Assembly (NCBI GenBank): GCA_965221755.1 | Contig: OZ244921.1 | Location: 2,706,334-2,770,333, forward strand | DNA length: 64,000 bases | Reading direction: 5' to 3' | Origin: Candidatus Azophilus sp. | Lineage (GTDB): Bacteria; Pseudomonadota; Gammaproteobacteria; Pseudomonadales; Azotimanducaceae | Shown here: positions 3,960 through 36,482 of the stretch, in pieces | Position numbering within the stretch: position 1 is the first letter of the stretch | How the letters are laid out: every line of letters begins with the position of its first letter | Notes under the pieces: generated by a model | What the model was told of the DNA's origin: nothing | Seen by the model: the letters and a program-made list of their open reading frames with translations, nothing else | Database searches by the model: none | Made by a program: the position numbers and the translations under genes

Positions 3960-4120
3960 ACCACCATCTGGCCTCGGCTGTCGGCGATTCCGTCGTTGAG
4001 GGGCGGCTTGGCACTCCGGGAACCCGGATCGGTCGGGTTCCGGCCCGCCGCCACGGGCGGCCGATTGCCGGAGACCGGGATTTTCGGGCGAGCGGGCGAA
4101 CGCCTTCCCGCCGCGGGCGC
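3960..4120 (+). promoter_or_regulatory. candidate cobalamin riboswitch (orphan, no downstream plus-strand gene)
   Basis: The ordered motifs are GGCACUCCGGGAACCCGG (4010-4027), GGGUUCCGGCCCGCCGCCACGGG (4035-4057) and the B12-box-like UUGCCGGAGACCGGGA (4065-4080). They resemble the conserved GGGAA...CCCGCCACUG...GCCAGGAGACCUGCC core only in this orientation. Confidence 0.3.
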
Positions 4121-4189
4121 GGCGTTCGGAAAGCGCGGCGGAAAATGCCTTTCAGGCGGCTGGCGGGGCGCGCGCCTCCAGCGAGACCA

Positions 4190-4400
4190 TCGCCCCGTAG
4201 AGCTAGTCCAGGCAGAAGTTCGTCTTCGCGAAGCCCAAACCCAGCCGGCGAGCCGAACGCACCATCAGCGCCGCCGTGCGCATCACGTGGCGGATCACCG
4301 CCGAGATGCCGTGCCGCCTCGCGCCCTTCGGCAAGGCCGTGCATTGCACCGCCCGCAACAGCACCTGGGCGATCTAGCCCAGGGCGTGGAAGGCCTGCTT
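4190..4400 (-). pseudogene. DDE transposase C-terminal remnant
   Basis: Own translation: GIKQAFHALG*IAQVLLRAVQCTALPKGARRHGISAVIRHVMRTAALMVRSARRLGLGFAKTNFCLD*, with two in-frame stops. The ...aa.lV.SARRl.L.f ending resembles the C-termini of IS1380/PF13701-type transposases. Confidence 0.3.
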
Positions 4401-4496
4401 GATTCCTATTTCTGCTTAGCGGCTGTCTGGAGGTGTGAAAACGACTATTGATATTCTTGAAGGAGCTGCAAGTGGTGTGCAAAAGATATCCACAAT

Positions 4497-5435
4497 TCAA
4501 ATCGGCGTGGGTGTGACGAAGTTTCGGAACTTGCCTTGTGTGATTCGCTGGCTGCGAAATACTTCAACGACTCCCAAAGCAGATAACTTGATTCGGCCTG
4601 GCTGCTCTTTTTGAAGTTGCGAATGCGCAAGCAGTGAGCGGACTTCCGGTAAACGGATGGGTGGAGACCAAATCGGCCAAGTTAGCGACGTCATGCGATT
4701 TCGTTTGCAAAATCCAGTTGTTTTGAGTTCGTGCGAACTAGGCTGTGTTGGAAATAAGGGCAGTGCTTCAATAGCAAGAAGATTTCCACCCCAAATACTT
4801 CCCGAGCTGTTTTTGGTCGGATCTTTAGCTGGATTACCCAAGCGCAGCGCATACCGATTATCATCTATCGGATCCTACCGCATACTGTGGCTCTTCACGG
4901 CATCGTCATACACCCACGTTTCAAATATAGCTTTATCGAGATGATTAAACCGCGTATCCTTCATCAAGGTTCGAATTGTTGCCAGAAAGTGTTGATGTCC
5001 CGCACCGCTCATCGTGCGAAAATCCGTATCGGCGATCTTTCCGGTGGGTTTGCCGTTTGATCTCGATTCGATTGCTTCACTGCCGAAAGCTGCTAAAAAA
5101 TCAATGTTAGCGCGATCCTGCGGTGAGGCTGTATTCAAGCTGTTTATTAATAATTTGCGAAAGTCGCCGATTTTGATTGTAAGATCATCACCGAGTCCAA
5201 AAGCCGCCAGATCAGCGCTAGCTTTTAATTGTTTTTCAAGTATATCAATCAGCATGACGCGATCTATTTCCGTAGTGGAAAACAGCTGCGGTCGCCAGTG
5301 GTCATTCACGGTTTGCCAACTCATTTCCCATTGATTTTCCGGCGCAGCAAGCGTCGCGGTTCTCAGAACGCCGAGAGCGGCGAGATAGCCAAGAGGGTTG
5401 TCGGCGGACAGGCCACGAAGCAATAGACTATTCAT
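4497..5435 (-). pseudogene. type I-U/I-G Cas8u/Csx17-like large-subunit gene with an in-frame TAG
   Basis: N-terminus is MNSLLLRGLSADNPLGYLAALGVLRT. The C-terminal part has LLAIEALPLFP...LTWPIWSPP. ORFs 4875..5435 and 4497..4841 are in the same frame, separated only by TAG 4875-4877 (...SHSMR*DPIDDNRYALRLGNPAKD...). Confidence 0.55.
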
Positions 5436-6587
5436 TCGCCTGCGCTCCAGTCATCGTTCAACTCTTCCCATTCGCTGCGCCGATGGTCTGCCAGTCGAAG
5501 GATCGCTTCCAGCCAAGCCAGGCCCCACCATCCGTAAGCTTCGACCAGCAGCCAGAATCGACGCGCTGTTCCGGCCTTCAAGTGCTCCAGCCGAGTCGGG
5601 CCGGACCACTTCATTTCCTTTCCATTAATCCGATAGCTGACTTCGGGTGCACTGTCGTCAATGACAACAGGCGCGAAGGGGCGGCAGTGCCCATGATGGC
5701 TGGAAACCAGAAACAATGTCAGTTCGCGCAATAGAGGATCATCGGGTAGCAATTCTGGAGCGCTTTCCGCGAGTCGCACGGATAGCAATTCGTGTCGACC
5801 ACCGGCGGGATAGCCCGCTTGGATACATGCCGTCGATCTCGCAGCACCGGTCTTTGGGAGTGAGGCGGACTTTGCCAAAGGCTCCGTCGCCGCCGACAAG
5901 CGACGACCTTCATTGAGCCATGACTGGAAGCGCGAATCGGCTTTGCCCGTATCGTGCAGCAATCCCGCACGAGCCACAGCATCAATAAGATCATCTGGCA
6001 GACCACAACCGAGGGCAAAGCGGCGAGCCCAAGCCTCCACTCCCGGTAGGTGCGTCTGTAAAAGGACAGGTTGGCCCTCCCTGTTGACAGTACCAGAGGA
6101 ATTCAGGTCATCCTCATCGTTAAAGGTTTCCGCTTGTCTTGTGTAATCGCGCATTAGATGTTGTCCGACCAATACGACATCATCTTCCCCGATGCGATGC
6201 AAATTTCGCACGAACCCGCGCCGCTTCGCTTCATTCCGGAGTTGTTTCGCAGTGGCGCGGAGCCATTCAAATTGGCGCTGCTCCCCACAATCCCTCACCA
6301 AGGCTTCAAGCTCTCACCAAGGCTTCAAGCAGGCGGCGCACCAAGTCCAATTGTATATTGGGATCGGAATCTTCAAGCTCCATCTCGACCAGCAATTCCT
6401 TCCCAAGTTCACGGCACTTCCCCGATGGCCACAGGTCGATCAATTGATCATGCAACCGCAACATTGCCTTGGCGCGGCTTTCCAGATAAGCCTGCTGGCT
6501 TATATCCAAATGAGCGGGAAGCATCACAGGAGCATGACGGGCAGGACTATTGAGATACTGAAGTTCGGGTTTGATGGGCGGTTTCAA
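5432..6587 (-). pseudogene. cas3: cas3 C-terminal part (linker + HD nuclease domain), frameshifted by a 19-bp duplication
   Basis: HD motifs LLHDTGKADSRFQ and SSHHGHCRPF. ORFs 6306..6587 and 5432..6301 become one frame if the tandem duplicate at 6294-6331 is removed (...RRLLEALVRDCGEQRQ...). Confidence 0.65.
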
Positions 6588-6655
6588 GTGGGCAATCGCC
6601 CAGTCAATAGCGTAACGCTGCCTCTGTGGTTGAGTATAAGGTAATCGCGTACCGC

Positions 6656-7639
6656 TCAGGCGGTGGCAACTCGGTTGGCGAACACAACGATTGCCGGGTT
6701 CTTCCCGCTATTTCCGGCCTTTGATTCTTCGGCAAGATTTTCAGCCTTTTCGGCAAGCGCCTTGGCAAAATTGCGTATCGCATTTCTGCCTTTCGCTACA
6801 TCCACTTGCTCCACCGAAGCCGGTTTCCGCGCCAACTGACGGCGGCCCAGCAGATGTTCCGGATCCTTGGATTGTGCCGAATCATCCTTGAAAACGGAAT
6901 CCAAGCCCGCAGGCGGTGTCGCTGAGAGAACCACCGGATGAAAACTGCGGCGCAGTGGAATTCTGCTCCAATTGTGACAGCGTTGAATTGCTTGGAGCGT
7001 CTCAAGAAATGGCTGGGCGCAGTGGGCTTCATCGAGCAAAATCAAACTGTCATTGGCTGTCAGTCCGGCAAAAACAGGCCACATGCCCGGCCCGCGCCCA
7101 TAGGTGCGAAACAACAGGCGGGAGCCGATTTGATCAACCGTGGAGGCGATTACGGCGGGTTGAAGCGGACTGCGCGCCCAAGAATCGGAACGGTAGCTTG
7201 CGCCCCGTAAAGTATGGACGGTAAGCGGCTGCTCATCTTGCCAAGATCCGTCCGAATCACCATACGCAATCAAACGCAAAGCGTCGGCCACATCCTTGAG
7301 AATGCCGGTTTTGGCATTCGCCAATTTCCTAGCCAGCCGCTTGGCGCGAGCATAGGCTTCATCAACGATGATGCGCCGATCCACAACAAAGAAGATGCGG
7401 CGAGGTGCTGTTATGGCACACCCATCCGACAGTCTCATGGCTTGAGCCGCCAGCGCGAAAACAGCTACGTCGATACAGGCTGTTTTTCCAGCGGCGGTAG
7501 GCAGCGCTATCGCCTCCGGCCATGGCTGACCTATATTTTCCATAACCCGCTCGGCCAATGCTTGCTGCCATGCGAACGGTCGGAAACTCCAAAGGGCTTG
7601 GAAATAATCGCCGAACCGGACTGCCGCAAGCTCAGCCAT
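6656..7639 (-). pseudogene. cas3: cas3 N-terminal helicase part (RecA1 only)
   Basis: LPTAAGKTACIDV (motif I), LILLDEAHCAQPF (DEAH) and VVLSATPP (motif III). The ORF stops right after VVFANRVATA, where RecA2 should begin. No motif VI is found downstream. Probable start is ATG 7639 (MAELAAVRF). Confidence 0.65.
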
Positions 7640-8156
7640 TGGTTTGCTCGCCCTGGTCCATCGGCAAAAAAAGGCCGTAGCCACGGAATCGTCCGGCACC
7701 AATCATGACCGGGCCAGTCACAGGCTGGTCGAAAACCAGCACAGCGTGGCTATGGTTGCGGATGCCGCCATCGAACTTTCGGGTCATGCGCGGAAACTCA
7801 CGCGCATGCGGGACACCCTCCACAAGCGAAACAGGATGCAGCACAACCTCATTCGGCGCTGGCAGTCCAATGCGTTCGCACGCTTTTTTGATATCTTCGG
7901 CGGCGCGTTGCCAGCGGTCGTTGCCGTCGTAATGGCGATCAAGGACGACGGGTGTCACGCTTGCCCAGGTTTTTGACGGGCGCGTCCAGCGTCCCGGACG
8001 CAAGGCCAGGGATGGTCGCTCGCGTGTTTCCTGCTCAACTTCGCATTCCAACCATTCGCCATCGAACAATCGATGCGTCGCCGTGAGGCTGGCCTCGCCA
8101 TACAGGAACCGGGACAGGCAATCGGCGGCTGCCTGTTCACTCGTCTCGCGGGGCAA
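7632..8156 (-). pseudogene. type I-U Csb2 (Cas5/6u) C-terminal fragment
   Basis: WASVTPVVLDRH...HAVLVFDQPVTGPVMIGAGRFRGYGLFLPMD is the characteristic Csb2 C-terminus. Only ~174 codons remain, and tRNA-Arg lies 94 nt upstream, leaving no room for the N-terminal ~300 aa. Confidence 0.55.
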
Positions 8157-8249
8157 TGCCAGCGCGATACCAAGGATTCGCCCGTCGGCGTGCTGCGAAC
8201 CGATTCCGGCCCGCGTTAGCCCACATTAATCTCGATCCCGGCACGATCT

Positions 8250-8326
8250 TGGTACGCCCGGAAGGGCTCGAACCTTCAACCCTCTGCTTAGAAGGCAGAT
8301 GCTCTATCCCGTTGAGCTACGGGCGC
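8250..8326 (-). tRNA. tRNA-Arg (anticodon TCT)
   Basis: Reverse complement: GCGCCCGTAGCTCAACGGGATAGAGCATCTGCCTTCTAAGCAGAGGGTTGAAGGTTCGAGCCCTTCCGGGCGTACCA. It folds as a cloverleaf with anticodon loop CTTCTAA, T-loop TTCGAGC and an encoded CCA. Confidence 0.93.
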
Positions 8327-8436
8327 CGTGACGACCAATCAAAGCAATAACAGACAAAGGGCTGCAAACCAACCCTGGGCGCAGGCCTCCGGCCCACCGC
8401 CAACCGGCCCGGCTTGGGAGGCCGGCCCACCGCATC

Positions 8437-8513
<77 letters not shown>

Positions 8514-8587
8514 GCTCAAACACCACCCCGCCGATGGCGCGCGGATGATACTGAGGGCTATCTAGAGCGTCAAATCCAAGTCTTGTC

Positions 8588-8679
8588 GGGTAGTGGCTCA
8601 GTTTCAATTTTCGCTGCCGCAGAGACCGCGCCCGCGTTGGGCTGCGGTAATGAAGCGTTGCCAAATTGAGCCACTACCC
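8588..8679. other. long nested hairpin (13-bp perfect outer stem) between tRNA-Pro and the Calx-beta gene
   Basis: GGGTAGTGGCTCA (8588-8600) pairs with TGAGCCACTACCC (8667-8679). AATTT/AAATT extends the stem. There is an inner stem CCGCAG/CTGCGG. Confidence 0.5.
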
Positions 8680-8796
8680 ACTATTGCAAAATCTTATCGG
8701 ATACAGGATAGTCGGGTTATCGCACCCGAATCGTATGCGGGTTCTACCTTGGCGACCATGGTGCGAAGCAGACGCACCACGGAGGGAGCACGAGAC

Positions 8797-9420
8797 ATGA
8801 TTAGGTATTCAGCCAACGGAAGCGCCAGTTCAGCCTCCCGGTTCCTGCGGGGCGGGGCGCTGGCATGCCTCGCTACCCTGATGCTGGCGGCGCTGGCCCA
8901 GCCAGCGGCGGCGAATAGGATGGTGGAGGGTGTGACGGCGGAGCTTAGGGTGGCGGATGTTCAATGCAGGGAAGGCGAAGATGCCCCCTTTGTGCTCATC
9001 CTCTCACGCCCTCTCCCCTTCGACATCTTCTATAGGTACCGTACCGAAGACCTCTCCGCCAAGGCGGGAAAAGACTATGTGGCGGAAAACGGAGATATTG
9101 TGATTCCCGCAGGAACGCAGTATATGCCGCTTGGCATCAAGACTCTCAAAGATGATGTCATCGACCGAAACAGGTTCATGTTAGTGCTGAGTGACCCTCA
9201 TACAAAGGGCTACGGAATGGTCTGGGGCGAGTACGTGTGGACCGATTGGTGGCGCGTCGAGGGCCTCCCCCTGTCGCTGACGGCGACCGCCGACATCGCC
9301 AACGCTCTGGACGGGTCTATGCAGCGGAACAATCCTCAACACAACAAATACACGCGAGACAGTTCGAGGAGAGGCGGCGGGCGCGACCAGCGCGGCGGTC
9401 GCCAAAATCGCGGCGGATGA
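8797..9420 (+). CDS. secreted Calx-beta domain protein
   Basis: GGAGG is followed by ATG 8797. The signal peptide is MIRYSANGS...LATLMLAALAQPAAA. The Calx-beta-like core is EGEDAPFVLILSRPLPFDIFYRYRTEDLSAKAGKDYVAENGDIVIPAGTQYMPLGIKTLKDD. The track ORF starts further upstream at 8593. Confidence 0.65.
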   Translation: MIRYSANGSASSASRFLRGGALACLATLMLAALAQPAAANRMVEGVTAELRVADVQCREGEDAPFVLILSRPLPFDIFYRYRTEDLSAKAGKDYVAENGDIVIPAGTQYMPLGIKTLKDDVIDRNRFMLVLSDPHTKGYGMVWGEYVWTDWWRVEGLPLSLTATADIANALDGSMQRNNPQHNKYTRDSSRRGGGRDQRGGRQNRGG

Positions 9421-9983
9421 GAGCGGATTTGCAGCCGCGAATTCCTGCGGCGCAGGCTCCTAAGACCATTTTATTGTCGGGCTCGGGGGTCTGGTGTGGC
9501 GACGGGCATGGCGGAGGCTGAGGCAGCCCAAGCCACCCTTGCGCCGGTTTAGACTGCCACGCAGAATCGCTCGGAACTGACGGACCACGGCCGCCGGGTG
9601 GGGTGCGCGGGCTTGATGATGCCGTCGCGCCCTGTGATGGCACGTCTCGTAGTCGCCAAACCATCTACCCCCTCGACGGGCGAGACGATCATCGCGCGCC
9701 AAGCGATTGGCGCACGCTGCCTCCAATACTCCCGGAAAAGGGGGGCGGGAAATGGCTTCAGCTGCGAGCGAGAGCGGAGGCGGGCCTACGGGGTTTGCCT
9801 TATGAGCATAGGTCACTTTGCGGGCGGATATCGCAATTTAACTCACCTGATATGCTGGCTTACTTCCCTCAGAATAGTTCGCACCCTCATACTCGGCAGT
9901 AAATTTAGCACTTTCTGTGGTTCCGATGTGCATTAGACGGATAGAGGGCTTGCGCCAAGCCCGTTTCTCAGGAGGGTTATCTA

Positions 9984-9998
9984 CCCCCCCCCCCCCCC
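9984..9998. repeat. C15 (G15 on minus strand) homopolymer
   Basis: Counted directly: 7 C at 9984-9990 plus 8 C at 9991-9998. Confidence 0.95.
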
Positions 9999-10275
9999 GA
10001 TTTCGGGCTCGGTCGGATTTGCCAAGCCCTCCGGCGGGGAATTAAGCTTCACTTTGGCCATTAGGTTGCTCCTTTTTCTAGCAGCAGAACGGTTCGCTTG
10101 CCGCAGCAAACTATTATAAAACCACACTATTGTCCCAAAGAAAAGCCGAACTGACAACTGGCTCAGTTCCTGTATAACGATCTCTCTGGGAAAGCCGCCG
10201 CCGGACGCGCCTGCCAAGCGCAGGCTGAGGGTGGACGAGCTGAAAGGAGTGCCCTCTGATTTCTGGTCACACTTG

Positions 10276-10328
10276 CGGAATAAGAGCGAATAAGCTCGGA
10301 ATAAGAGCGAATAAGCTCGGAATAAGAC
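10276..10328. repeat. 21-bp tandem repeat x2.5 (five GAATAAG cores at ~10.5-bp spacing)
   Basis: CGGAATAAGAGCGAATAAGCT at 10276 and 10297, with a partial copy at 10318. It lies 14 nt downstream of the stop of the last operon gene. Confidence 0.9.
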
Positions 10329-10341
10329 GGGCGACCGTCGT

Positions 10342-11736
10342 TTACGTGGCCTTCCAGCGCGCTCCCCGGCCATGTCCGGTCGCTCGCGCCAGACCGGTGG
10401 CCCTCAGGGCAGCCAAACACCGGCGAAGCTGAGAATCGCTTAGCTGCCCATCCAGCAGCGATCGAATTTCGCGCAATGCCAACCCACCACCGGAGTGACG
10501 CAGCAACGCCAAAACCTCATCTTGCCGCTCTGAGAGTCCGGCACCAGCTTGCCGAACGAACGACGCATCCTTGCGTCGAAACCGGACCGTTACGCAGTCG
10601 CCACGCTCCTCGATTTCAGGGCGCGGCAAACCCATTGAGGTTGCCACGTTAGCCATCCTGATCGTGCCCCTGCCCCATTCCTCGATGATGCCCCGCCGGT
10701 AGAAGGTGCGGGCGATCAGAGGATTCCATGGCCTTGATTCGTGCGGCCCGAACAGGTCATCCGGAGTCAACCCGAAGTGCAGCGGGCCGGTGGAGGTCAC
10801 TTCCAGGCGGTCGTCGTAGATGGCGAGACCGATGGAGCCGCCGCCCAGGGCGTAGTCGCGGTGGCACAGCGCATTCGCGAGCGCCTCGCGTGTCGCCAGT
10901 GGCGGGTATAGCGGCTCGTCTATGCGCTGCATGCGGCCCGACTCGAAGCGGCTCGCAATCGGCAACGTATCGCGGAGAAAACGCTCGGCGCTCGCAAGGA
11001 GCACGAAAGCGTTGCCATTGAATTGCCGGTTGTCCAGGAATTCGGATCGGTCAAGCCCACGAAAGCGCGCCACGCGAAGCAGGCATTGAGGCATATCGGA
11101 TTCGAGACGCTCGCGCTTGCCGAACAATGCTGCCGCAGCCCTGAACAGGACTCCGCCGCGCATCAGCCCCAAGCCACGCAGCAAATCCTCCGGTTCCCGG
11201 GTTCCTGGCTCGTCGAGGCGGCCGATGCGAACGGCCTCCGCGATGGTGTTGCGAATCTCGGCAAGATCGAGATCGTCCACGGTCCATCCGACGGCCGGCT
11301 GGTTTTCCCAGCGCTGCTCGGCGTGCATGCGCTCGAAGAGCATGCGGTTGTGCTCAGCGGACGACATGCTCCGGGTCGTGTTGCCGACACGCCGATAGGC
11401 GACATTTCGGTACTGGTAAGGCGGCGAAGACCCGGGGGCTATGCGAACCGCGATCACCTCGCGATTCGCGGACACTTGAATGCGTTCGATCTCCGGAAAC
11501 GCGGGTGGGTCGATGCGTTGGAACTCGGCGCTGACATCCTCGATCGTGCGATCGCCGATACTTTGGCCGACAACGGCTCCTTGAGGAGTAACGCCGAACA
11601 GCACATGGCCGCCGCGCTGGTTGAGCATCGCGCACACGGTCGCCGCGGCTTCACGTCGAGTTCCGGTAGTGGCCTTGAACTCCAGCGTTTCGGACTCGCC
11701 CAATGCGACAAGCGCCTTGATTTGATCGAGCGTCAT
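10342..11736 (-). CDS. AlbA_2 (Schlafen-like) / HATPase_c_4-type ATP-binding protein with C-terminal wHTH
   Basis: N-terminus LVALGESETLEFKATTGTRREAAATVCAMLNQRGGHVLFGV is the classic AlbA_2 'divergent AAA' start. The C-terminus LSERQDEVLALLRHSGGGLALREIRSLL is wHTH-like. The ATG overlaps the upstream stop (ATGA, 11733-11736). Confidence 0.75.
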   Translation of the reverse strand: MTLDQIKALVALGESETLEFKATTGTRREAAATVCAMLNQRGGHVLFGVTPQGAVVGQSIGDRTIEDVSAEFQRIDPPAFPEIERIQVSANREVIAVRIAPGSSPPYQYRNVAYRRVGNTTRSMSSAEHNRMLFERMHAEQRWENQPAVGWTVDDLDLAEIRNTIAEAVRIGRLDEPGTREPEDLLRGLGLMRGGVLFRAAAALFGKRERLESDMPQCLLRVARFRGLDRSEFLDNRQFNGNAFVLLASAERFLRDTLPIASRFESGRMQRIDEPLYPPLATREALANALCHRDYALGGGSIGLAIYDDRLEVTSTGPLHFGLTPDDLFGPHESRPWNPLIARTFYRRGIIEEWGRGTIRMANVATSMGLPRPEIEERGDCVTVRFRRKDASFVRQAGAGLSERQDEVLALLRHSGGGLALREIRSLLDGQLSDSQLRRCLAALRATGLARATGHGRGARWKAT

Positions 11737-12407
11737 TCGTGCGACTCTGCCGTGAGATCCGGGGCGACTCCCTGCTCCAGCGTGTCGAACGCCCGAAGCA
11801 CGAGGCGCTTAGTGCGGTACTCGCCGAAATTTTTCAATTCGTATTGCTTCAGCGATGGGAACGACGAGCCTGGCGGAGTCGCGTCCAGAATCCATTCCAA
11901 GTCAGGGCGGCTGAGCCCGTACATGTGGGCAAAGATCGCGTCGAGTTCCGATTGCAGGCAATGGCGGCGTTGCTCGTTCCATGGGAAAGGCGGTCCCTCG
12001 TAACCGATGTCTCGGGCAAATCCGGTTAACTCCTCCGATGCGTAGGATAATTGTAACGTCCGGGGAACGATCAACTCGACGTAGGGCCTGCCGCAGGCGC
12101 TGTTTTTCAGATACTCGTCCGGCGGCAATACGGGCATCTGTTTGAGAATGAAGACACTCATGTGGACGCCGCCGACGGAGAACCGAGCCGCCCAATCGAG
12201 CGGGAGGCTGTTCATGTTTGTCGAAACGAGTGCAGATGCGATAGTGCGACCGTGCTCGTAGTCGATTATCGGAGCGGTATGCCCGATGCCGCTCCGGGGC
12301 AGGTTGCCCGTGACAAGAGTTCGTTCGTTCGTGGCATTGGTAATGTCGCGAAACGCTTGAATCCATGTCGGGGAATCGCTTCGCGCGAGTGGTCGGCTGG
12401 CGATCAT
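11733..12407 (-). CDS. stand-alone paralogue of the methyltransferase C-terminal module
   Basis: The 224-aa protein aligns by eye to residues ~1198-1390 of the 1403-aa MTase. Shared blocks: ERTL(V/I)T, PRSG, GG(V/T), I(L/I)KQ(M/L)P(V/I)L, IVPR(T/V)L(Q/E)L(S/T)Y, PFPW, GE(Y/F)RTKR. There are ATGA overlaps at both ends. Confidence 0.75.
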   Translation of the reverse strand: MIASRPLARSDSPTWIQAFRDITNATNERTLVTGNLPRSGIGHTAPIIDYEHGRTIASALVSTNMNSLPLDWAARFSVGGVHMSVFILKQMPVLPPDEYLKNSACGRPYVELIVPRTLQLSYASEELTGFARDIGYEGPPFPWNEQRRHCLQSELDAIFAHMYGLSRPDLEWILDATPPGSSFPSLKQYELKNFGEYRTKRLVLRAFDTLEQGVAPDLTAESHE

Positions 12408-15400
12408 AATGAGAGCCCCGGTGACCGGGTCAGGCGGAGTGGGTATGCATTGCCGGTCATGCCGGCAGCCATCATCTCGTCGTATATCTCCAGGATCTCG
12501 CGTTTGGTACGAAATTCGCCGTAGTCACGCTCGTCATCCCGTTTCACGATGGGAAAGGTCTCCAGGATGTAGTCCACATCGTCGCGGTCCATGCCATAGA
12601 GGCGGAACAACGCTGCGTCGATCTCGCACCTCAACCGAAACCGGCGGTCCTCGCTCCACGGAAACGGTTGCTCCTCGTACCCGAGATGCTCCGCGAAGTC
12701 CTGCAACTCCGACGAAGTGTAGGTAAGCTCAAGCACGCGCGGCACAATGAAATCCGCATACATGCAACCCCATCCCATGTCGTCCTGGAACCGTGCCGGG
12801 TGAAGAATGGGAAGCTGCTTGATGATGAAATAGCTGAGATCGGTGCCGCCAACGGCGGAGCGGGCCGCGAAATCGACCACGAACGAGTTGAGGAGCGCGA
12901 CGATGAGGGGTGCCGCTTCATCGGCCGCAACGCGGAGAAGTGGCGCGCGGTCGCTCATTCCAGACCTCGGGACGGGCGCGGTGATGAGTGTTCTTTCATC
13001 CGTAGCTCTTGCTGTTTTCCGGAACGGTACAATCGCCCGGCGAGCGACACGACCGCACCTTTGCTGCCGAGCCCTGTGGCTGGCATGAGGGAGGAAATCA
13101 GGGTTCTCCGGTCGGTTGATCTCGTAATCAGCCTCAACGCGATCTCCCATCCTCGAGCCCGCAGAGCGCGTTGCGGGCCAGTTTGGCGAGCCGATCGAGT
13201 ATAATTGCTCGGCTCGGCTCGGCTCGGCTCGGCTCGGCTCGGCTCGGCTCGGCTCGGCTCGGCTCGGCTCGGCTATCAATTGTATGGTCGTTCCGGACTT
13301 GTCAAGTCTTTCCGCCACTTTTTCTTCCGGAACCCAGTATCGCGGGATGGCGACCGACTCTGGATCCGCCTTCTCTTCCTTGGTCATCGGTCGGGCCTTG
13401 CCGTTTCGGATGTCGTGCTCGGATACGCCGTCGAACGTGGCGAAGCGGTGGTCGTACTGATGAAACAGCTTGGCTTCGTAGAGCGGCAGATAGCGTTCCT
13501 GTCCTCGCACAAATACGTTGCCGTCCAATTTCCACCCGCTGTCGGCAAGTTCCTGGCGGGTTTTGAATAGCCCCGAATCGTTGGACATATCGAACATTCT
13601 GGAGAACTTCACGCCCCATGGATTCTCTTCCGCCTGCGACCCGCTGCCATCCCTCCAGAACACGCCGGCACGCTCGTACATCTTGCGGGCGATATCCATG
13701 TCGCGCCGGGTGCGGAAGATCGGGCAAGTGCGCGTGTTGGGCTTGAACAGCGAGAAATCATCCACCGACAGCGTGAATCGCCGCTCCGCCTCCTTCAATT
13801 GCTCCGCCTGGTGCAGGAAGAAGGCGAACTCGGCCTGCGGCGCCGGACGGTCCTTGCCGCTCAGCGTGAGCAGGCAGAATTTGATACGACTATCGATGCC
13901 CGGAAAAACCTTCTCCCGGTTCTCGAAATCGAACAGGCTGACGAGCCGCTGGCCGCTGACGATATGGTCGAAGTACGCCTTGGTGGAATGGTCGGTCGCG
14001 ATTCCGGTCGGCACGATCAGTCCGGCGCGGCCTCTTGGATTGAGTAGCTGAAGAAAAGTCTCCGCGAAGACGGCGTAGGTGTTCAGATCGCCCACGCCGG
14101 TGAGCGGAAACCGCCCTCCGGTGCGCGCGAACTGGCTGGCCGCCTCGGCTTCGCGCTTTGCGGTCTGGAACTCCTGGAAGAGCGCCATTTCGGCGGGCGA
14201 TGCGCCATCGCGGTCAAGGTGCCGAATCAGACGGTCCCGCGCGGCCTTGTTGGGCGCGGCCGCAATCTCGGGAGACCGCGAGGCGAAAAACTCCTGTTCC
14301 TGTAGCTTGATGCGCTCCCACGGCGGATTGCCGAGCACGGCATCGAAACCACCGTCCTGCATGATTTCGGCGAAGGCGAGATGCCAGTGGTGGAATCGGT
14401 GGCGGTCCTGCAGGTCCCGCGCAAGCTCATGGACGCCGCGGCGCGGGGGCAGTTCGTCCGCCAGCCGATCCAGATCCTGGGTTTGGGACACGATCTCCAG
14501 CGTTTCCCGCCTCTTCGGCGCGAACCATGCGCCCACGAACAGATCGGCGCGTAGCGTCTCCCGGGCGTGCGTCGCATCGTGCAGGCCCGCCGTCCAGGCT
14601 GCGCGCTTGCGTTCCACGTCGTCGAGCGTGTCTTCGGGCATGGCATCCAGATCCAGACCCGCGACTGCAACTTCCAGCACGGCGTCCTGATCGAACAGGC
14701 CGTGCTGATCCGGTTGGCGGTTGCGTTTCTTGAGATCCAGGCACGCCGCCTTGTCGTCGCCGGTCAGAGGTTTGTAGGCGTCCGCGGGAATGCCGTTCAC
14801 CATGATCTCGGGATCGAGCACGCCGACCAGGCTGTCGCCCTGAAGAATGTGGGAATCGAGGAAAGTGAGCGGTTTGCCGGGCTCCACCGTTTCCATCCAG
14901 AGCGCGGTCTTGCAGAGCTCGACGGCAAGCGGATTGCGGTCCACCCCGTAGATGCAGTGCTGCGCCACCTCGCGCAGGGCATGCTGGCGCGCAGTCTCGT
15001 CGGCGGTGTCGGCGCCGGATTCGATGCGGGCGATTTCGGCGGCGAGACGGCGCGCCGCCGCCAACAGGAAATGTCCCGATCCGCAGGCCGGATCAACGAT
15101 CCTCAAGCCCAGAATGGCGCCGCGCGGATCCTTCGGGTTGGCGGCCAGCACTTGGTCGATAACCGGATCGAGCGTGGACCGGACGAGTTCACCGACCAAG
15201 GCGGGCGGCGTGTAGTAGGAGCCGGTCAGCTTGCGCTCCGATCCCCTGACCCTCTCCTCGTTATCGTCACCGACAAAGGCGAAAACCCAGGGCGAAGCAT
15301 CCACGTCGATGACAGGGTGAAGTTCCAGAAGGCTCTCGTAAACAGACCCCAGTTCCTCGGTGCCCATGTCCCGGTAGTTGACGCGGGCGAGCGCGTTCCC

Positions 15401-27936: not shown

Positions 27937-29151
27937 TCAATGGCTCACCGATTCCTCCAGCACCACGAAGCGCCCGTCCTGAACCTGCGACAGAACGCTC
28001 GCCTCCACTCCGTGGTGCCTTTCAGGCGAGAAGGAGACGCTGTAGCCGAAAATGTCCGTGTAATCCCGAATGGCCTGAATCCCCTTGACCAGCGCTTCGA
28101 CCGTCAGGTCGCGTCCGGCGTTCTCCAAGGCCAGCATGGTCAGGTCGGCTGCGCGGTAGCCCTCCATCGCCGCCAGTCCGGGATCCTGGCGGTACTTGTC
28201 CCTGTAACTGTTCCACCACGCCTGCACTGCGGGCGGCTTCGGATCATCCGGGTAGATCTTGGCCATGTGCGAGAACACGTAGTACCCCTCGCCGCTTTCG
28301 TGGTCGGCAATGGCCTGGGCGTAGGTTGCGTTGGTGCCCACCCAGGCGACGTCCTCCCATCCCAGTCTGCGGGCGGCGTCGAGAATGAGGATCGTGTCCT
28401 GATGCACGGTGCCCATGGCCACCATGTCGCACCCGGCCTCCCGCAGCTGCAGGACGGCATCCGTGAAATCCTCCGCCGCCGGCTCGTGGGAGGAGCGGGC
28501 GGTCAGGCGCAGGCCCATGCCCGCCAATTGGCTTTCGGCGGCGTCAAGCGTCTCACGCCCGTACTCGGACTCGTGGTGGATGACGCAGACGGACTGCTTG
28601 CCCTTGTTCTCGACGAAGTGCCGCACCGCGGCGCGGACCTCGTTGTAGTAGATGCCGCGCTGGGTGAACTTCAGGGGATGGAACGGCTCCACCATCTGGC
28701 GCCCGCCGCTGCCGGCGAAGAGGTTCGGAACCCCGGCCATGAACAGCCTCGGCATGATGGCGTTGTTCATCGGCGTCCCCAACCCCATCAGCATGGCGAA
28801 GATGCCGTCCCGGTCGAGGAGCTTGTTGGTGGCCTGAATCGCCTTGGGCAGCTCGTAGGCCGTGTCCTCCACCACTAGGCGGATCAGCCGCCCATGCACG
28901 CCCCCCGCCGCGTTGGCCTCGTCGAAGCGCATGCGCGCGCCATTGGTGGCGCCGACGCCCCAGATGGCCGCCGGACCGGACAGGTCCGTATGGCTGCCGA
29001 TGATGATCTCGGTCTCGGTGACGCCACGCACTGAGGGGGTGCCGGAGCCGCCTTCCTCCGTCATTTCCGCGCCGTCCGCGCCGTCCGCGCCATCTCCGCC
29101 GCAGCCCGCCAAAGCCAGTGCGCCAGCCAACAGGAATTTCAACCCTCTCAT
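27937..29151 (-). CDS. ABC transporter substrate-binding lipoprotein, branched-chain amino acid (LivK) family
   Basis: From ATG 29151: MRGLKFLLAGALALAGCGG (lipobox), then ...EIIIGSHTDLSGPAAIWGVGATNGARMRFDEANAAGGVHGRLIRLVVEDTAY. No permease or ATPase genes are adjacent. The track ORF is extended to 29526. Confidence 0.8.
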   Translation of the reverse strand: MRGLKFLLAGALALAGCGGDGADGADGAEMTEEGGSGTPSVRGVTETEIIIGSHTDLSGPAAIWGVGATNGARMRFDEANAAGGVHGRLIRLVVEDTAYELPKAIQATNKLLDRDGIFAMLMGLGTPMNNAIMPRLFMAGVPNLFAGSGGRQMVEPFHPLKFTQRGIYYNEVRAAVRHFVENKGKQSVCVIHHESEYGRETLDAAESQLAGMGLRLTARSSHEPAAEDFTDAVLQLREAGCDMVAMGTVHQDTILILDAARRLGWEDVAWVGTNATYAQAIADHESGEGYYVFSHMAKIYPDDPKPPAVQAWWNSYRDKYRQDPGLAAMEGYRAADLTMLALENAGRDLTVEALVKGIQAIRDYTDIFGYSVSFSPERHHGVEASVLSQVQDGRFVVLEESVSH

Positions 29152-29547
29152 CAACGACGGCCTCCTCAACCCCAACGTGGGCGAGGGGGCATTGTACTCA
29201 AGCGCGGCGCTTGACGGAATGATGGCCGTTCGGAATTTGAGGGCATTAACTGCCACTGCCGGCGTCTTGGGGAGCAAGTTCAGCGAACAGGCGCTTTCCC
29301 GCCGCCTGTCGGTCTTCCGTGAGTTGCGATGAGGTTGCGCGGAACTGCCGAAGGCCCGGAACGCAACCCATCCCGCCCGGCCCACTGGCCGGGGGCGGCA
29401 TTTCCATTGGCCATGCGCTGAAATGCGCGATCCGTGCCGGAGCTTGGGCTGGAGTTCGCCCCAGCGAAAAACCGAAGGCGCCGGCCAAAACACGGTCAAC
29501 TTCCTGTATGATCGCGGGGCGGACAACCACTAAGGAGCCAGATATGA

Positions 29548-29561
29548 CCCCCCCCCCCCCC
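29548..29561. repeat. C14 homopolymer immediately after SD-ATG (29532-29546)
   Basis: Counted directly: 3+10+1 C. AAGGAG 29532-29537, ATG 29544-29546. Confidence 0.95.
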
Positions 29562-29598
29562 GACCCTCACTAGTAGATTAGCCACCGCCTCGCTTGCG

Positions 29599-30297
29599 TT
29601 GGTGATGGCGGCGCTGGCCATGCCAGCGGCGGCGCAGGTGCCAACACTCGGCATTGGCTGGGGAAGTGCATTAAGGGACGCAGGAACCCATGGTGAAAAC
29701 CTTAATGCCGGATGCTTCTCAAACCTGTTCCTCAGGGCAAGCAGCGGCGGCGGGAACGTAACAGTTCACTTGATGGCCATTCCCGTGTCTGGCCCGAATC
29801 GGCTGCACGACCTTGGCGTGCCAGCCTATGTGGCGACCGGCAGTGCCGAGATCAGGACACAGAGCCGGTTCACGCACAGCCTCTCCACAACTGCGACGCG
29901 GGTTCCCTCGGGTAACACGATCTGCATCGGAAACAACAAGATACAGCAGGACGTGAGCGTGATCCGAGTCCTGTTGATGCGGGGTTCCGGGTACACGGTC
30001 GACCCGGAAAATCGGTCGATAGACGTGAGAGTCTATGACCTTGATACATGCGCTAGTCCAGATGATCTTCCCGAAAACGGGGGCGTCGTTTACAAGTTCA
30101 ACGGAAGCGGCGGCGCGTGGGGCACCTGCAGATGCAGGGAAGAGAGCGCGCACCCGGAAGTCCGGCGGTTGGCAACCTACGATTCGAGACAGTCCCGAGC
30201 GGCTTGGCAGGCTGGATTAAAGCTACTCGGCCAGAAGTTCCACGACCCTGAATACCTCTACTGCGATGAATCGCCTTGGAAGGGCCTCCCGCAATGA
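29599..30297 (+). CDS. secreted Cys-containing protein of unknown function; native start probably ATG 29544 in a different homopolymer-length state
   Basis: The ORF frame is open back to 29548. With C13 or C16 the ATG at 29544 gives MTPPPPTLTSRLATASLALVMAALAMPAAAQVPTLG, a full signal peptide. I recognise no family. Confidence 0.6.
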   Translation: MVMAALAMPAAAQVPTLGIGWGSALRDAGTHGENLNAGCFSNLFLRASSGGGNVTVHLMAIPVSGPNRLHDLGVPAYVATGSAEIRTQSRFTHSLSTTATRVPSGNTICIGNNKIQQDVSVIRVLLMRGSGYTVDPENRSIDVRVYDLDTCASPDDLPENGGVVYKFNGSGGAWGTCRCREESAHPEVRRLATYDSRQSRAAWQAGLKLLGQKFHDPEYLYCDESPWKGLPQ

Positions 30298-30755
30298 ACT
30301 GATCCGCACGATCGGAACTCGCGCTTGAGGGCGGCTTCCAGGCCGCCCTTTTGCCATGAGGAACCCTGCTCGCTCCGGCGCGCCTAACGAGCCGCTTATG
30401 TTGACAGGGGGCTCGTCGATCACCAACCCGAAGCGAGGGGTGCTGAAGTGAAGGACACATGGCCCAAGCGATAAAGTCGGGGCGTTAATCCCGCAAAATT
30501 CCGAACGGCTATCAAATTCCGAACGGCTATGGGACGGAATGCCGTGAGCTTTCGGCCCGATCAGGCCGAAAGCTCGATTGGAGTCTGGCAGCCGCCAGAC
30601 TCCGCGAGCATCGCCTGTTGCCGATTGCGCCGATTGGTCCCCACCCGTTGCCGCTTCGTTCCCGCGATTGCCGTTTCGTCGCATGGCCGTTGTCAAACCG
30701 GCGCCGGCAACGTTAGTTTGGACGGCGGATCAGCAAGTTTCCCTTGGGAGCGCAG

Positions 30756-35595: not shown

Positions 35596-35598
35596 CAG

Positions 35599-35996
35599 CG
35601 TCCCGCCTTCGACTGGACCGCTGGCATGCGCGCCCCGAACTCACGGCGGCGATCGATCCCCGGCGTTTTCGGGCGCCGGGTTGCGCAGCAACTCGAACGC
35701 TTCGCCGCCGGCGCTGCGCCATTCGTCAGCTCGCGCTCCGAAGCGTCCCGCCTTCGACTGGACCGCTGGCATGCGCGCCCCGAACTCACGGCGGCGATCG
35801 ATCCCCGGCGTTTTCGGGCGCCGAGTTGCGCAGCAACTCGAACGCTTCGCCGCCGGCGCTGCGCCATTCGTCAGCTCGCGCTCCGAAGCGTCCCGCCTTC
35901 GACTGGACCGCTGGCATGCGCGCCCCGAACTCACGGCGGCGATCGATCCCCGGCGTTTTCGGGCGCCGAGTTGCGCAGCAACTCGAACGCTTCGCC
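35599..35996. repeat. 145-bp tandem repeat, 2.7 near-identical copies
   Basis: Unit starts at 35599, 35744 and 35889. Copies 1 and 2 differ at one position that I could see. The unit contains the lptE 3' end and stop plus the lptE-holA spacer. Confidence 0.9.
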
Positions 35997-36482
35997 GTAG
36001 GCGAAGCGCAGGCTGCGCAGCATCTGCTGCACTAGGGCGGTCGTCAGCTCCTGTTCAATCAGGGCCTCCTCCTCGCTGCTGCCGGCGAGGCTGCCGCGGT
36101 CGATGTTGAAGACTCTTGAGGCCCTGATCCAGGCCGGATCGATCAAGCTCTCCGCGTCGGCCCGGATGCCGAACTGCACCCCCAGGGTGAGTTCAAACTC
36201 CGCCGCCCGCGACCCGGCGGTCAATGAGGCCACGCGGCGGCTGCGGCTTTCGTTGACGATCTGGACCACCAGGTCGGCATCGTCGGCGCTGGCGCTCGAC
36301 GCGGCGCCGGCTTGGCGCAAGGCGTCGCGCAGCGGCGCGGCCATGCGGCTTAAGGCGTCGGCCTGGACGTGGACGCTGAGCGCCGCATCCGAGAAGTCCC
36401 AGGAGCGCAGCTGGAAGCCGCAACCCGCGGCCGCAAGCGTCGTCCCGATGAGCCCCAAGGTCGCCAACAGTCGCTTGCCCAC
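35931..36482 (-). CDS. lptE: LPS-assembly lipoprotein LptE
   Basis: VGKRLLATLGLIGTTLAAAGCGFQLR (lipobox + GFQLR) from GTG 36482. The track ORF extends to GTG 36626 through repeat-derived sequence. The C-terminus ends inside the 145-bp repeat. Confidence 0.7.
   Translation of the reverse strand: MGKRLLATLGLIGTTLAAAGCGFQLRSWDFSDAALSVHVQADALSRMAAPLRDALRQAGAASSASADDADLVVQIVNESRSRRVASLTAGSRAAEFELTLGVQFGIRADAESLIDPAWIRASRVFNIDRGSLAGSSEEEALIEQELTTALVQQMLRSLRFAYGEAFELLRNSAPENAGDRSPP

Follow-up and report, generated by a model that had tools for sequence, protein, structure and literature searches.

A Length-Variable Poly-C Tract in the Signal-Peptide Coding Region of a Predicted Secreted-Protein Gene of Candidatus Azophilus: a Probable Phase-Variation Switch

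In a 64,000-nucleotide stretch of the genome of Candidatus Azophilus sp. (GenBank assembly GCA_965221755.1, contig OZ244921.1, positions 2,706,334 to 2,770,333; the whole stretch is called the window here), a run of 14 cytosines (C14) lies between an ATG start codon at 29544 and the body of a gene for an unnamed, predicted secreted protein. We consider it probable, at about 0.8, that this tract, within the signal-peptide coding region, switches translation by phase variation through slipped-strand mispairing. An earlier note on this stretch had suggested ATG 29544 as the native start of the gene and the length of the tract as what switches it. That suggestion is supported by the alignment of homologues, the product of a C13 tract, the phases of the tract in relatives, and otherwise identical gene copies that differ in the tract.

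In the proposed mechanism, translation would start at ATG 29544 behind a strong Shine-Dalgarno (SD) sequence, and the tract would be read as prolines. A tract length of 13 + 3n would let the ribosome proceed into the signal peptide and a mature protein of 219 amino acids (aa). Slipped-strand mispairing at replication would add or remove one C and thereby throw the body out of frame; stop codons built into the sequence would then end translation in either wrong frame within 3 to 5 codons. The C14 allele would turn ON through one deletion (C13) or two insertions (C16). Replication slippage presumably changes the tract length at a high and reversible rate.

Frame logic of the C14 tract

Direct reading of the sequence confirmed the coordinates and frames reported earlier (Table 1). 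The tract spans codons 2 to 6 of the ATG 29544 reading frame, which as assembled encodes MTPPPPDPH (9 codons) and ends at TAG 29571-29573, followed by a second TAG at 29574-29576. The long open reading frame (ORF) is in the +1 frame relative to this ATG and runs open from 29548 to TGA 30295-30297, with a body of 244 codons. It is open only from 29548 because TGA 29545-29547 closes the body frame upstream, and therefore no start other than ATG 29544 serves the body before 29599. Depending on the tract length, the encoded product has 11 aa (C12), 250 aa (C13), 9 aa (C14), 12 aa (C15), or 251 aa (C16), and the C13 and C16 products begin with MTPPPP(P)TLTSRLATASLALVMAALAMPAAAQVPTLG. The gene is in frame (ON) at C13 or C16 and OFF at the C14 of the assembly. 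As at contingency loci, a homopolymer of at least 8 nucleotides (nt) stands near the 5' end of the frame, and the gain or loss of 1 nt decides between a full-length product and an early stop.

The window has a G+C content of 64.8%, from which about 10 runs of G or C of at least 8 nt would be expected; none of length 7 to 13 is present. Base composition predicts 0.005 C runs of at least 14 nt in 64 kb, so the C14 tract is not a chance feature. Two such runs were observed, the other being a C15 run at 9984-9998. No paralogue of the gene family was found anywhere in the 64-kb window.

Signal peptide and translation start

A complete Sec-type signal peptide had been proposed for the C13 frame, and manual analysis of the n, h, and c regions fits this. 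The predicted signal peptide has 30 residues: its n-region contains a single Arg, the core of 15 residues (LATASLALVMAALAM) is uncharged, and positions -3 and -1, ahead of Gln, are both Ala; the A-x-A-Q motif is aligned in all full-length homologues. The stretch from the tract to 29634 aligns residue for residue with the ordinary N-termini of homologues (P0003, MKQAASTLFAVAMVALALPAVAQ; L003 and L004, MSLRIIRMLPACAAALAATLALSAAPAVAQ), and because homologous signal peptides align to it, this stretch is body-frame coding sequence. Only the ATG 29544 start yields a complete predicted signal peptide. The public gene call at the locus (P0001, 225 aa) has none because its called start is ATG 29620. 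Export of the full-length product is a prediction.

These observations also bear on an alternative raised in the earlier note, in which MTPPPPDPH is an EF-P-dependent polyproline leader peptide. Stalling on it would then govern initiation at TTG/GTG/ATG 29599-29605. Strong stalling motifs are present in PPPPD, and this upstream ORF ends 25 nt before the TTG. However, the 0-frame peptides differ among relatives in both sequence and length (9 to 59 aa), and direct reading found no purine-rich, SD-like stretch just ahead of the starts at 29599-29620. Products from TTG 29599, GTG 29602, ATG 29605, or ATG 29620 would keep only 6 to 8 hydrophobic residues of the core, with no Lys or Arg ahead and no n-region. 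In addition, the stretch between the tract and the TTG aligns as signal-peptide coding sequence in homologues, and in ON alleles the prolines belong to the protein. With unconserved short peptides and defective downstream starts, a leader peptide is scarcely credible.

Poly-C tract across the gene family

The protein belongs to a small, unnamed family, for which searching with a single sequence gave 3 matches and with a profile 15. When the full library was searched by profile, the result was about 30 small, roughly full-length members together with many giant repeat proteins, which match only the beta-sandwich part of the family profile. Labels of metagenome-assembled genomes (MAGs) within the family include Paracoccaceae, Roseovarius, Aestuariivita, Arenicellales, and Ca. 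Azotimanducus. A protein profile scan of the metagenome contig collection found no relative. In metagenome contigs, the DNA pattern CCCCCCCC-N0-2-GCTAAAYTA gave 85 matches, all of them chance matches with no signal peptide behind.

Eleven family loci, the window locus included, were read at the DNA level, and at all of them a poly-C tract stands 1 to 9 codons after an SD-preceded ATG (Table 1). A GGAG-type motif lies 5 to 8 nt upstream of the ATG in most related loci. Comparing the tract in relatives, as the earlier note had proposed, placed it at the same position in the ON phase and in both OFF phases. The phases of the 11 family tracts (ON, needing -1 nt, and needing +1 nt) are 2:6:3, which is not different from random (chi-square p 0.31). 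A wider set of 15 tracts (C8 to C24) consists of these 11 loci, a remnant in L015, and three cassettes on unrelated secreted-protein genes described below. Two of these tracts are ON, 7 need -1 nt, and 6 need +1 nt, again compatible with random phases (chi-square p 0.25).

Length differences were found between otherwise identical sequences. Two copies of one gene (L013 and L014) have 0 mismatches over 3,612 aligned bases, and the single gap between them is the tract (C19 versus C14). L009 and a detached 5' end in L015 are near-identical and carry C12 and C11, respectively. In L015, the gene for P0014 is split by an insertion sequence (IS; DUF4096/DDE_Tnp_1), with the body at 2121-2842 and the C11 cassette (1945-1955) about 1 kb upstream. 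Six contigs, named in the manner of short-read assemblers and one of them from a Logan assembly of SRR10996912, have C11 as the coding tract.

At the protein level, ON and OFF forms are paired within clusters at 90% identity, and these sequences come from NCBI, JGI/IMG, ENA, and Logan. The ON protein P0168 (MKLLRTLTPPPHKL...) clusters with the truncated P0030, and the ON protein P0169 (MHTLPPPPKIL..., labelled Aestuariivita MAG) clusters with the truncated P0021. P0038 (MKRFTPPPINL...) clusters with P0165, whose pre-tract stretch reads in another frame. In-frame alleles are common in the wider family, with their prolines fused in frame to the signal peptide; members without the tract (P0003 and P0010) have plain signal peptides.

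The genomic contexts of the relatives are varied and often IS-rich. Contig names lead us to guess at sponge-associated samples. At L010 (ctg9999_1815x_c, 528,522 bp), the family gene carries C23-A-C5 and lies among core housekeeping genes, those for RNase III, Era, RecO, and adenylate kinase. By its name, this contig is a circular replicon of 0.53 Mb at ~1800x coverage, possibly of a reduced-genome symbiont. The family gene of L006 encodes a run of NNNNNNN at residues ~57-63 that is absent from other members.

The distribution of phases bears on a rival in which recoding allows expression of the C14 allele: either tRNA-Pro shifts the ribosome by +1 on CCC-C, perhaps with the help of stalling at PPPPD, or RNA polymerase slips on the run. 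An OFF allele would then leak, constitutively or under some conditions. CCC-C is a classic +1 slip site of tRNA-Pro that is restrained by m1G37 and EF-P, and a body in the +1 frame fits such a site (PMC7577736). The first four tracts examined all required the same +1 shift, and 7 of the 13 OFF tracts are in the +1 phase. However, phase is not conserved, as 2 tracts are in frame and 6 need the opposite shift. The tracts vary in length between 8 and 24, the context of the shift site is not conserved, and the 0-frame stop lies 3 codons past the tract, not at the shift site, although no search was aimed at a prfB-type stimulatory arrangement. The shared shift of the first four tracts had raised suspicion of programmed frameshifting or a systematic +1 miscall; obligatory +1 recoding was dropped when eleven more tracts brought ON and -1 phases; obligatory recoding is rejected because phase is unconserved and in-frame alleles are common. 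Overall, we regard recoding as improbable, and some leak by ribosomal or transcriptional slippage on the long run is possible.

Stop trap after the tract

Besides the tract, the sequence that follows it also fits a phase-variation switch. Of the 30 wrong-frame readings that the 15 tracts give, 28 meet a stop no more than 5 codons past the tract. For control positions within these genes, a stop comes within 6 codons in 22.5% of readings, and the median distance to it is 20 codons. The nominal binomial p for this enrichment is 2e-16, which overstates independence because the loci are related. The trap is built from different sequences at the different loci (CTAGTAGATTAG, CGCTAAATTAG, CGTTAAGTAA, and CGCTAGGCTGA).

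In the window, the stops are made by the body-frame codons ACT AGT AGA TTA (29569-29580). These account for 5.7%, 2.7%, 1.5%, and 0.5% of the Thr, Ser, Arg, and Leu codons, respectively, in the window's long ORFs, and the multiplied frequencies of the four consecutive rare codons come to ~1e-7. This suggests that the nucleotide sequence here was selected for its effect in the wrong frames. Such selection would be understandable only if the wrong frames were regularly read.

ON allele of the same gene and accuracy of the tract length

The predicted 250-aa C13 product was found exactly in a public collection by exact-sequence look-up (P0178, from a 10,313-bp ENA contig). P0178 shares a 90% cluster with P0001 (3.89-Mb contig) and with a 190-aa variant (1.33-Mb contig). 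Therefore, public records contain both an in-frame and an out-of-frame form of the same gene: in this gene the C13 frame (P0178, at the protein level) stands against C14, and relatives differ in length at the DNA level.

The errors that persist in long-read consensus sequences are chiefly in long homopolymers. Thus, the true tract in the genome might be C13, with an intact, ON gene and a consensus that is off by one base, as the earlier note had cautioned. The exact C13 product is recorded from another assembly, and the contig names of related MAGs are typical of long-read metagenome assemblers. On the other hand, C8 and C9 tracts, which are called more reliably, are likewise out of frame; two identical copies of similar nominal coverage are 5 nt apart in tract length rather than 1; tracts and length differences also occur in short-read assemblies; and a stop trap makes sense only with real wrong-frame reading. 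The multisource ON/OFF pairs, the short-read-style contigs, and the out-of-frame C8 and C9 tracts reduce the concern over tract lengths in the related loci. A C13 run would be equally prone to slippage, so a miscall would alter the state of the switch, not its nature. The caveat stands for the assembly of the window, where we give a miscall a minor yet appreciable chance, and fails to explain the feature as a whole.

Several points weigh against a switch. The C14 length at the window locus is read from the assembly, heterogeneity within the population there is presumed, and the C13 tract of P0178 is deduced from a protein sequence. Three ENA metagenome assemblies, long-read-like to judge by their contig names, supply most of the related loci. 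Long-homopolymer lengths are error-prone in such assemblies, and random errors would also randomize the phases. ON alleles are in the minority, with 2 of 15 at the DNA level (p 0.08), for which selection, chance, or error could be responsible. Finally, switching and expression are deduced here from sequence, and export is predicted.

The ON allele also helps to weigh a decaying pseudogene, in which the frameshift would be an inactivating mutation and the tract would have no regulatory role. Some related loci do lie in IS-rich regions, L015 is split by an IS, and L016 has a frameshift away from any homopolymer. The window gene has a G+C content of 60% and a G+C content at third codon positions (GC3) of 0.69, under the window average, which suggests a foreign origin. 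However, the 244-codon body is fully open and identical to the product of the ON allele, the family is conserved with invariant Cys residues and motifs, and the sole lesion falls exactly in the tract, which occupies a conserved position in different bacterial classes. A pseudogene is thus very unlikely, and a phase-variation switch remains our preferred explanation.

Further variable elements in the family

Other repeats were found at family loci. In short-read-style contigs, a second poly-C lies between TTGTCA and TATAAA, ~440 nt upstream of the family gene, and varies between C13 and C15 on an otherwise 99.7 to 100% identical background (three samples). In L003, L004, and L016, there is no coding tract, and perfect 13-nt tandem repeats stand instead just upstream of a GGAGG ribosome-binding site, ending 18 to 26 nt upstream of the start codon. 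With GGGG every 13 nt, these repeats may form a further variable element of the family, distinct from the tract. L016 also has, at 2925-2965, a 1-nt deletion in the signal-peptide region relative to L003 and L004, away from any homopolymer, which marks either a pseudogene or an assembly error.

In L102 (1477-1535), the SD-proximal ATG is out of frame at C11, and a second ATG, with no SD, is in frame. Two ATGs in different frames, here and in the clusters of P0038 and P0165, suggest that two of the three phases might yield a product, possibly at different levels.

The same cassette on other genes

The arrangement at the family loci runs in the order SD, ATG, a few codons (commonly ending in TTCA), poly-C, a basic residue with the stop trap, and the signal peptide. 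The same cassette heads three further predicted exported proteins, all out of frame as assembled (Table 1). These three proteins have no detectable similarity to the family or to each other beyond the signal peptide, and Pfam gave no family for two of them. Two other candidates were set aside. A C7 run in two IS630-like copies (L001), considered as a +1 shift site, was rejected because the run lies beyond the end of ORF1 and the offset is -1. A split LysR gene (L001), considered as a gauge of assembly error, has its frameshift away from any long homopolymer and is uninformative.

Tentatively, the unit of SD, ATG, 1 to 9 codons, poly-C, trap, and signal peptide may be a portable cassette. It would have passed between Alpha- and Gammaproteobacteria that share a marine and probably host-associated habitat and would have been joined to several unrelated secreted-protein genes, although we would not bet on it. 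If this were true, whole sets of exported proteins would be under stochastic ON/OFF control, and at some loci the control could be graded, through second ATGs in another frame, promoter-spacer poly-C, or upstream 13-nt repeats. Such a "phasome" would belong to a lifestyle without described precedent.

Table 1. Positions of the features in the window and at related loci
Feature	Locus	Position	Strand	Remarks
Shine-Dalgarno sequence AAGGAG	Window	29532..29537	+	6 nt upstream of ATG; direct reading
ATG start codon	Window	29544..29546	+	Overlaps TGA 29545-29547
C14 homopolymer, slippage-prone, putative switch	Window	29548..29561	+	A at 29547 before, G after; needs -1 nt
Stop trap	Window	29562..29581	+	TAG TAG (29571-29576) in ATG frame; TAG (29579-29581) in third frame
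Remaining signal-peptide coding region, body frame, TLTSRLATASLALVMAALAMPAAA	Window	29563..29634	+	Predicted cleavage between A-A-A and Q, after 29634
Mature protein, 219 aa + TGA stop	Window	29635..30297	+	Predicted Calx-beta-like beta-sandwich ~29638-30042; Cys-rich C-terminal part
Terminator-like GC-rich hairpin, then TTTT	Window	30327..30352	+	30 nt past stop; -29.4 kcal/mol, z -3.2
Coding tract C9	L005, Paracoccaceae MAG			Needs -1 nt
Coding tract C8	L006, Arenicellales MAG			Needs -1 nt
Coding tract C22	L007, Ca. Azotimanducus MAG			Needs -1 nt
Coding tract C24	L008, metagenome contig			In frame
Coding tract C12	L009, metagenome contig			In frame
Coding tract C23	L010, metagenome contig			Needs -1 nt
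Coding tract C16	L011, metagenome contig			Needs +1 nt
Coding tract C16	L012, metagenome contig			Needs +1 nt
Coding tract C19	L013, metagenome contig			Needs -1 nt
Coding tract C14	L014, metagenome contig			Needs +1 nt
Cassette-headed gene	L008	4566-5156	-	C12 (5187-5198)
Cassette-headed gene	L001	7369-7932	-	C10 (7888-7897)
Cassette-headed gene	Divergent from L006 family member		-	C8 (4860-4867)
Promoter-spacer-like poly-C	L102	1061-1073		C13
Promoter-spacer-like poly-C	L103	1059-1073		C15
Promoter-spacer-like poly-C	L106	17-29		C13
13-nt repeats	L003	5771-5894		CTCTTCACGGGGC x 9.5
13-nt repeats	L004	5823-5891		CTCTCCACGGGGC x 5.3
13-nt repeats	L016	2570-2899		CTCTCACCGGGGC x 25.4

Predicted protein and gene surroundings

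An AlphaFold model built on a 15-sequence alignment had a mean predicted local distance difference test (pLDDT) score of 70, and residues 31-165, mostly above 85, formed a beta-sandwich. The predicted fold is that of a Calx-beta domain: the best PDB matches in Foldseek were Calx-beta domains of Na+/Ca2+ exchangers and integrin beta4, the top ones (3gin, 3fq4, 2dpk, 2qvk, and 3e9t) with an E value of 2e-4, a probability of 1.0, and a target template modeling (TM) score of 0.62 to 0.71. Pfam gave no match at E <= 1 for the window protein, Calx-beta PF03160 included, and none at E <= 0.01 for the homologues P0008 and P0010. The C-terminal third was poorly modelled; it bears several conserved cysteines and the motifs GAWGTC.C and FHDP.YLYC.ESP, and no recognized relative of this Cys-rich part was found. 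The insert IPTPGPDGRYGTDDDGTT, present in most relatives, is absent from the window protein. From the modelled fold and the cysteines, we would guess at a surface or extracellular binding protein.

The neighbours in the window are ordinary, with a periplasmic binding protein gene upstream on the other strand and genes for a DUF2141 protein and an RPE65-type oxygenase downstream. In RNA folding, no shuffled sequence was as stable as the hairpin that follows the gene. A consensus promoter and terminator scan of 29100-30500 found nothing; the strict consensus missed this hairpin because it is followed by only 4 T. Rfam gave nothing in 28900-30600.

Elsewhere in the window, the C15 run at 9984-9998 is the only other G or C run longer than 6, with AGGAGG 9 nt upstream. 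It sits in a gene-poor gap of ~900 bp flanked by genes for a Calx-beta protein (8593-9420) and, on the minus strand, an AlbA_2/HATPase_c_4 protein (10342-11736). When it was checked for a cassette or ORF, it had no ATG, GTG, or TTG start, and no signal peptide lay behind it. A perfect pentanucleotide repeat, (GCTCG) x 13.6 at 13207-13274, begins 2 nt past a TATAAT hexamer and is a candidate slippage-prone element. Both lie, together with a 21-nt tandem repeat (10276-10327), in a stretch of low G+C content (4001-14000; 55 to 61% versus ~65% elsewhere) that surrounds tRNA-Arg(tct) (8250-8326) and tRNA-Pro(tgg) (8437-8513) and resembles a genomic island. Longer tandem repeats in the window have a 45-nt unit x 4.4 (2636-2835, 90% matches) and a 145-nt unit x 2.8 (35597-35997, 99% matches).

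Novelty and significance

Homopolymer contingency loci are textbook material for a few host-restricted pathogens, and the mechanism itself is well known. New here are the protein family, the lineages, and a signal-peptide cassette with a stop trap that unrelated genes in different bacterial classes share. Literature searches found no report of such loci in GC-rich marine or symbiotic Proteobacteria, nor a relevant precedent in symbionts or sponges. If confirmed, these bacteria would stochastically diversify exported or surface proteins, which would bear on their persistence with hosts, grazers, or phages. The switching may matter for the interaction with a host or predator.

There are also practical consequences. 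Gene callers truncate such genes, as in the window, where the call of 225 aa has no signal peptide, and the genes can resemble pseudogenes. The homopolymer lengths of such genes in metagenome assemblies are better taken as population states.

Comparison with known systems

The closest structural relative is the Calx-beta domain (PF03160), on which predicted residues ~31-165 superpose, and the family profile also matches modules of giant multirepeat proteins; unlike Calx-beta domains proper, the protein has no Pfam match at E <= 1. The locus differs from prfB-type programmed +1 frameshifting, in that offset and shift site are not conserved across tracts (2 in frame, 7 at +1, and 6 at -1). It also differs from regulatory polyproline leader peptides, in that there is no conserved short ORF and no functional-looking downstream start.

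In Bordetella, a poly-C tract in the promoter spacer switches fim. The opc gene of Neisseria meningitidis likewise has a poly-C promoter tract (PMC3960869). Similarly, three relatives (L102, L103, and L106) carry C13 or C15 in a promoter-like spacer, a promoter being suggested by the resemblance of the hexamers. Unlike opc and fim, the window gene is without a promoter tract, and its switch would be translational. For Bartonella (Alphaproteobacteria), one report describes simple-sequence repeats that drive rapid host adaptation; the loci are different genes, and the report documents contingency loci in Alphaproteobacteria (PMC11466379).

A close likeness is found in the sialidase gene nanH3 of Gardnerella, where a C8-C14 tract lies by the signal peptide, every third length gives the full product, the others give ~40 aa, and tract lengths were shown to vary within cultures (bioRxiv 10.1101/2020.09.16.300947). 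As in nanH3, the poly-C tract here adjoins the signal-peptide coding region of a predicted extracellular protein. The phylum there is Actinomycetota, and the proteins are unrelated. In nanH3, the tract follows the signal peptide (about nt 100), whereas here it precedes the hydrophobic core, and because of this the OFF products have only 9 to 12 aa and no signal peptide.

For pilC of Neisseria, Jonsson et al. reportedly placed the tract in the signal-peptide coding region in 1991, and on that account the tract here has the same location. The loci differ in several respects. The bacteria here are GC-rich, marine-type Alpha- and Gammaproteobacteria known from metagenome assemblies, not host-restricted pathogens, and their switching is proposed from sequence data. 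The protein family is unrelated and unnamed, the tract comes as early as codon 2, and a stop trap for the wrong frames is conserved. In Neisseria, genic G/C tracts of 9 to 21 are a standard switch, including those of pilC, pglA, lgtA/G, and nalP (PMC5953494). As in those genes, the homopolymer here stands in the 5' part of the frame of a gene whose product is, in the present case by prediction, a surface or secreted protein, and ±1 nt toggles between a full and a truncated product. As there, where this holds among strains, ON and OFF alleles coexist (PMC5953494).

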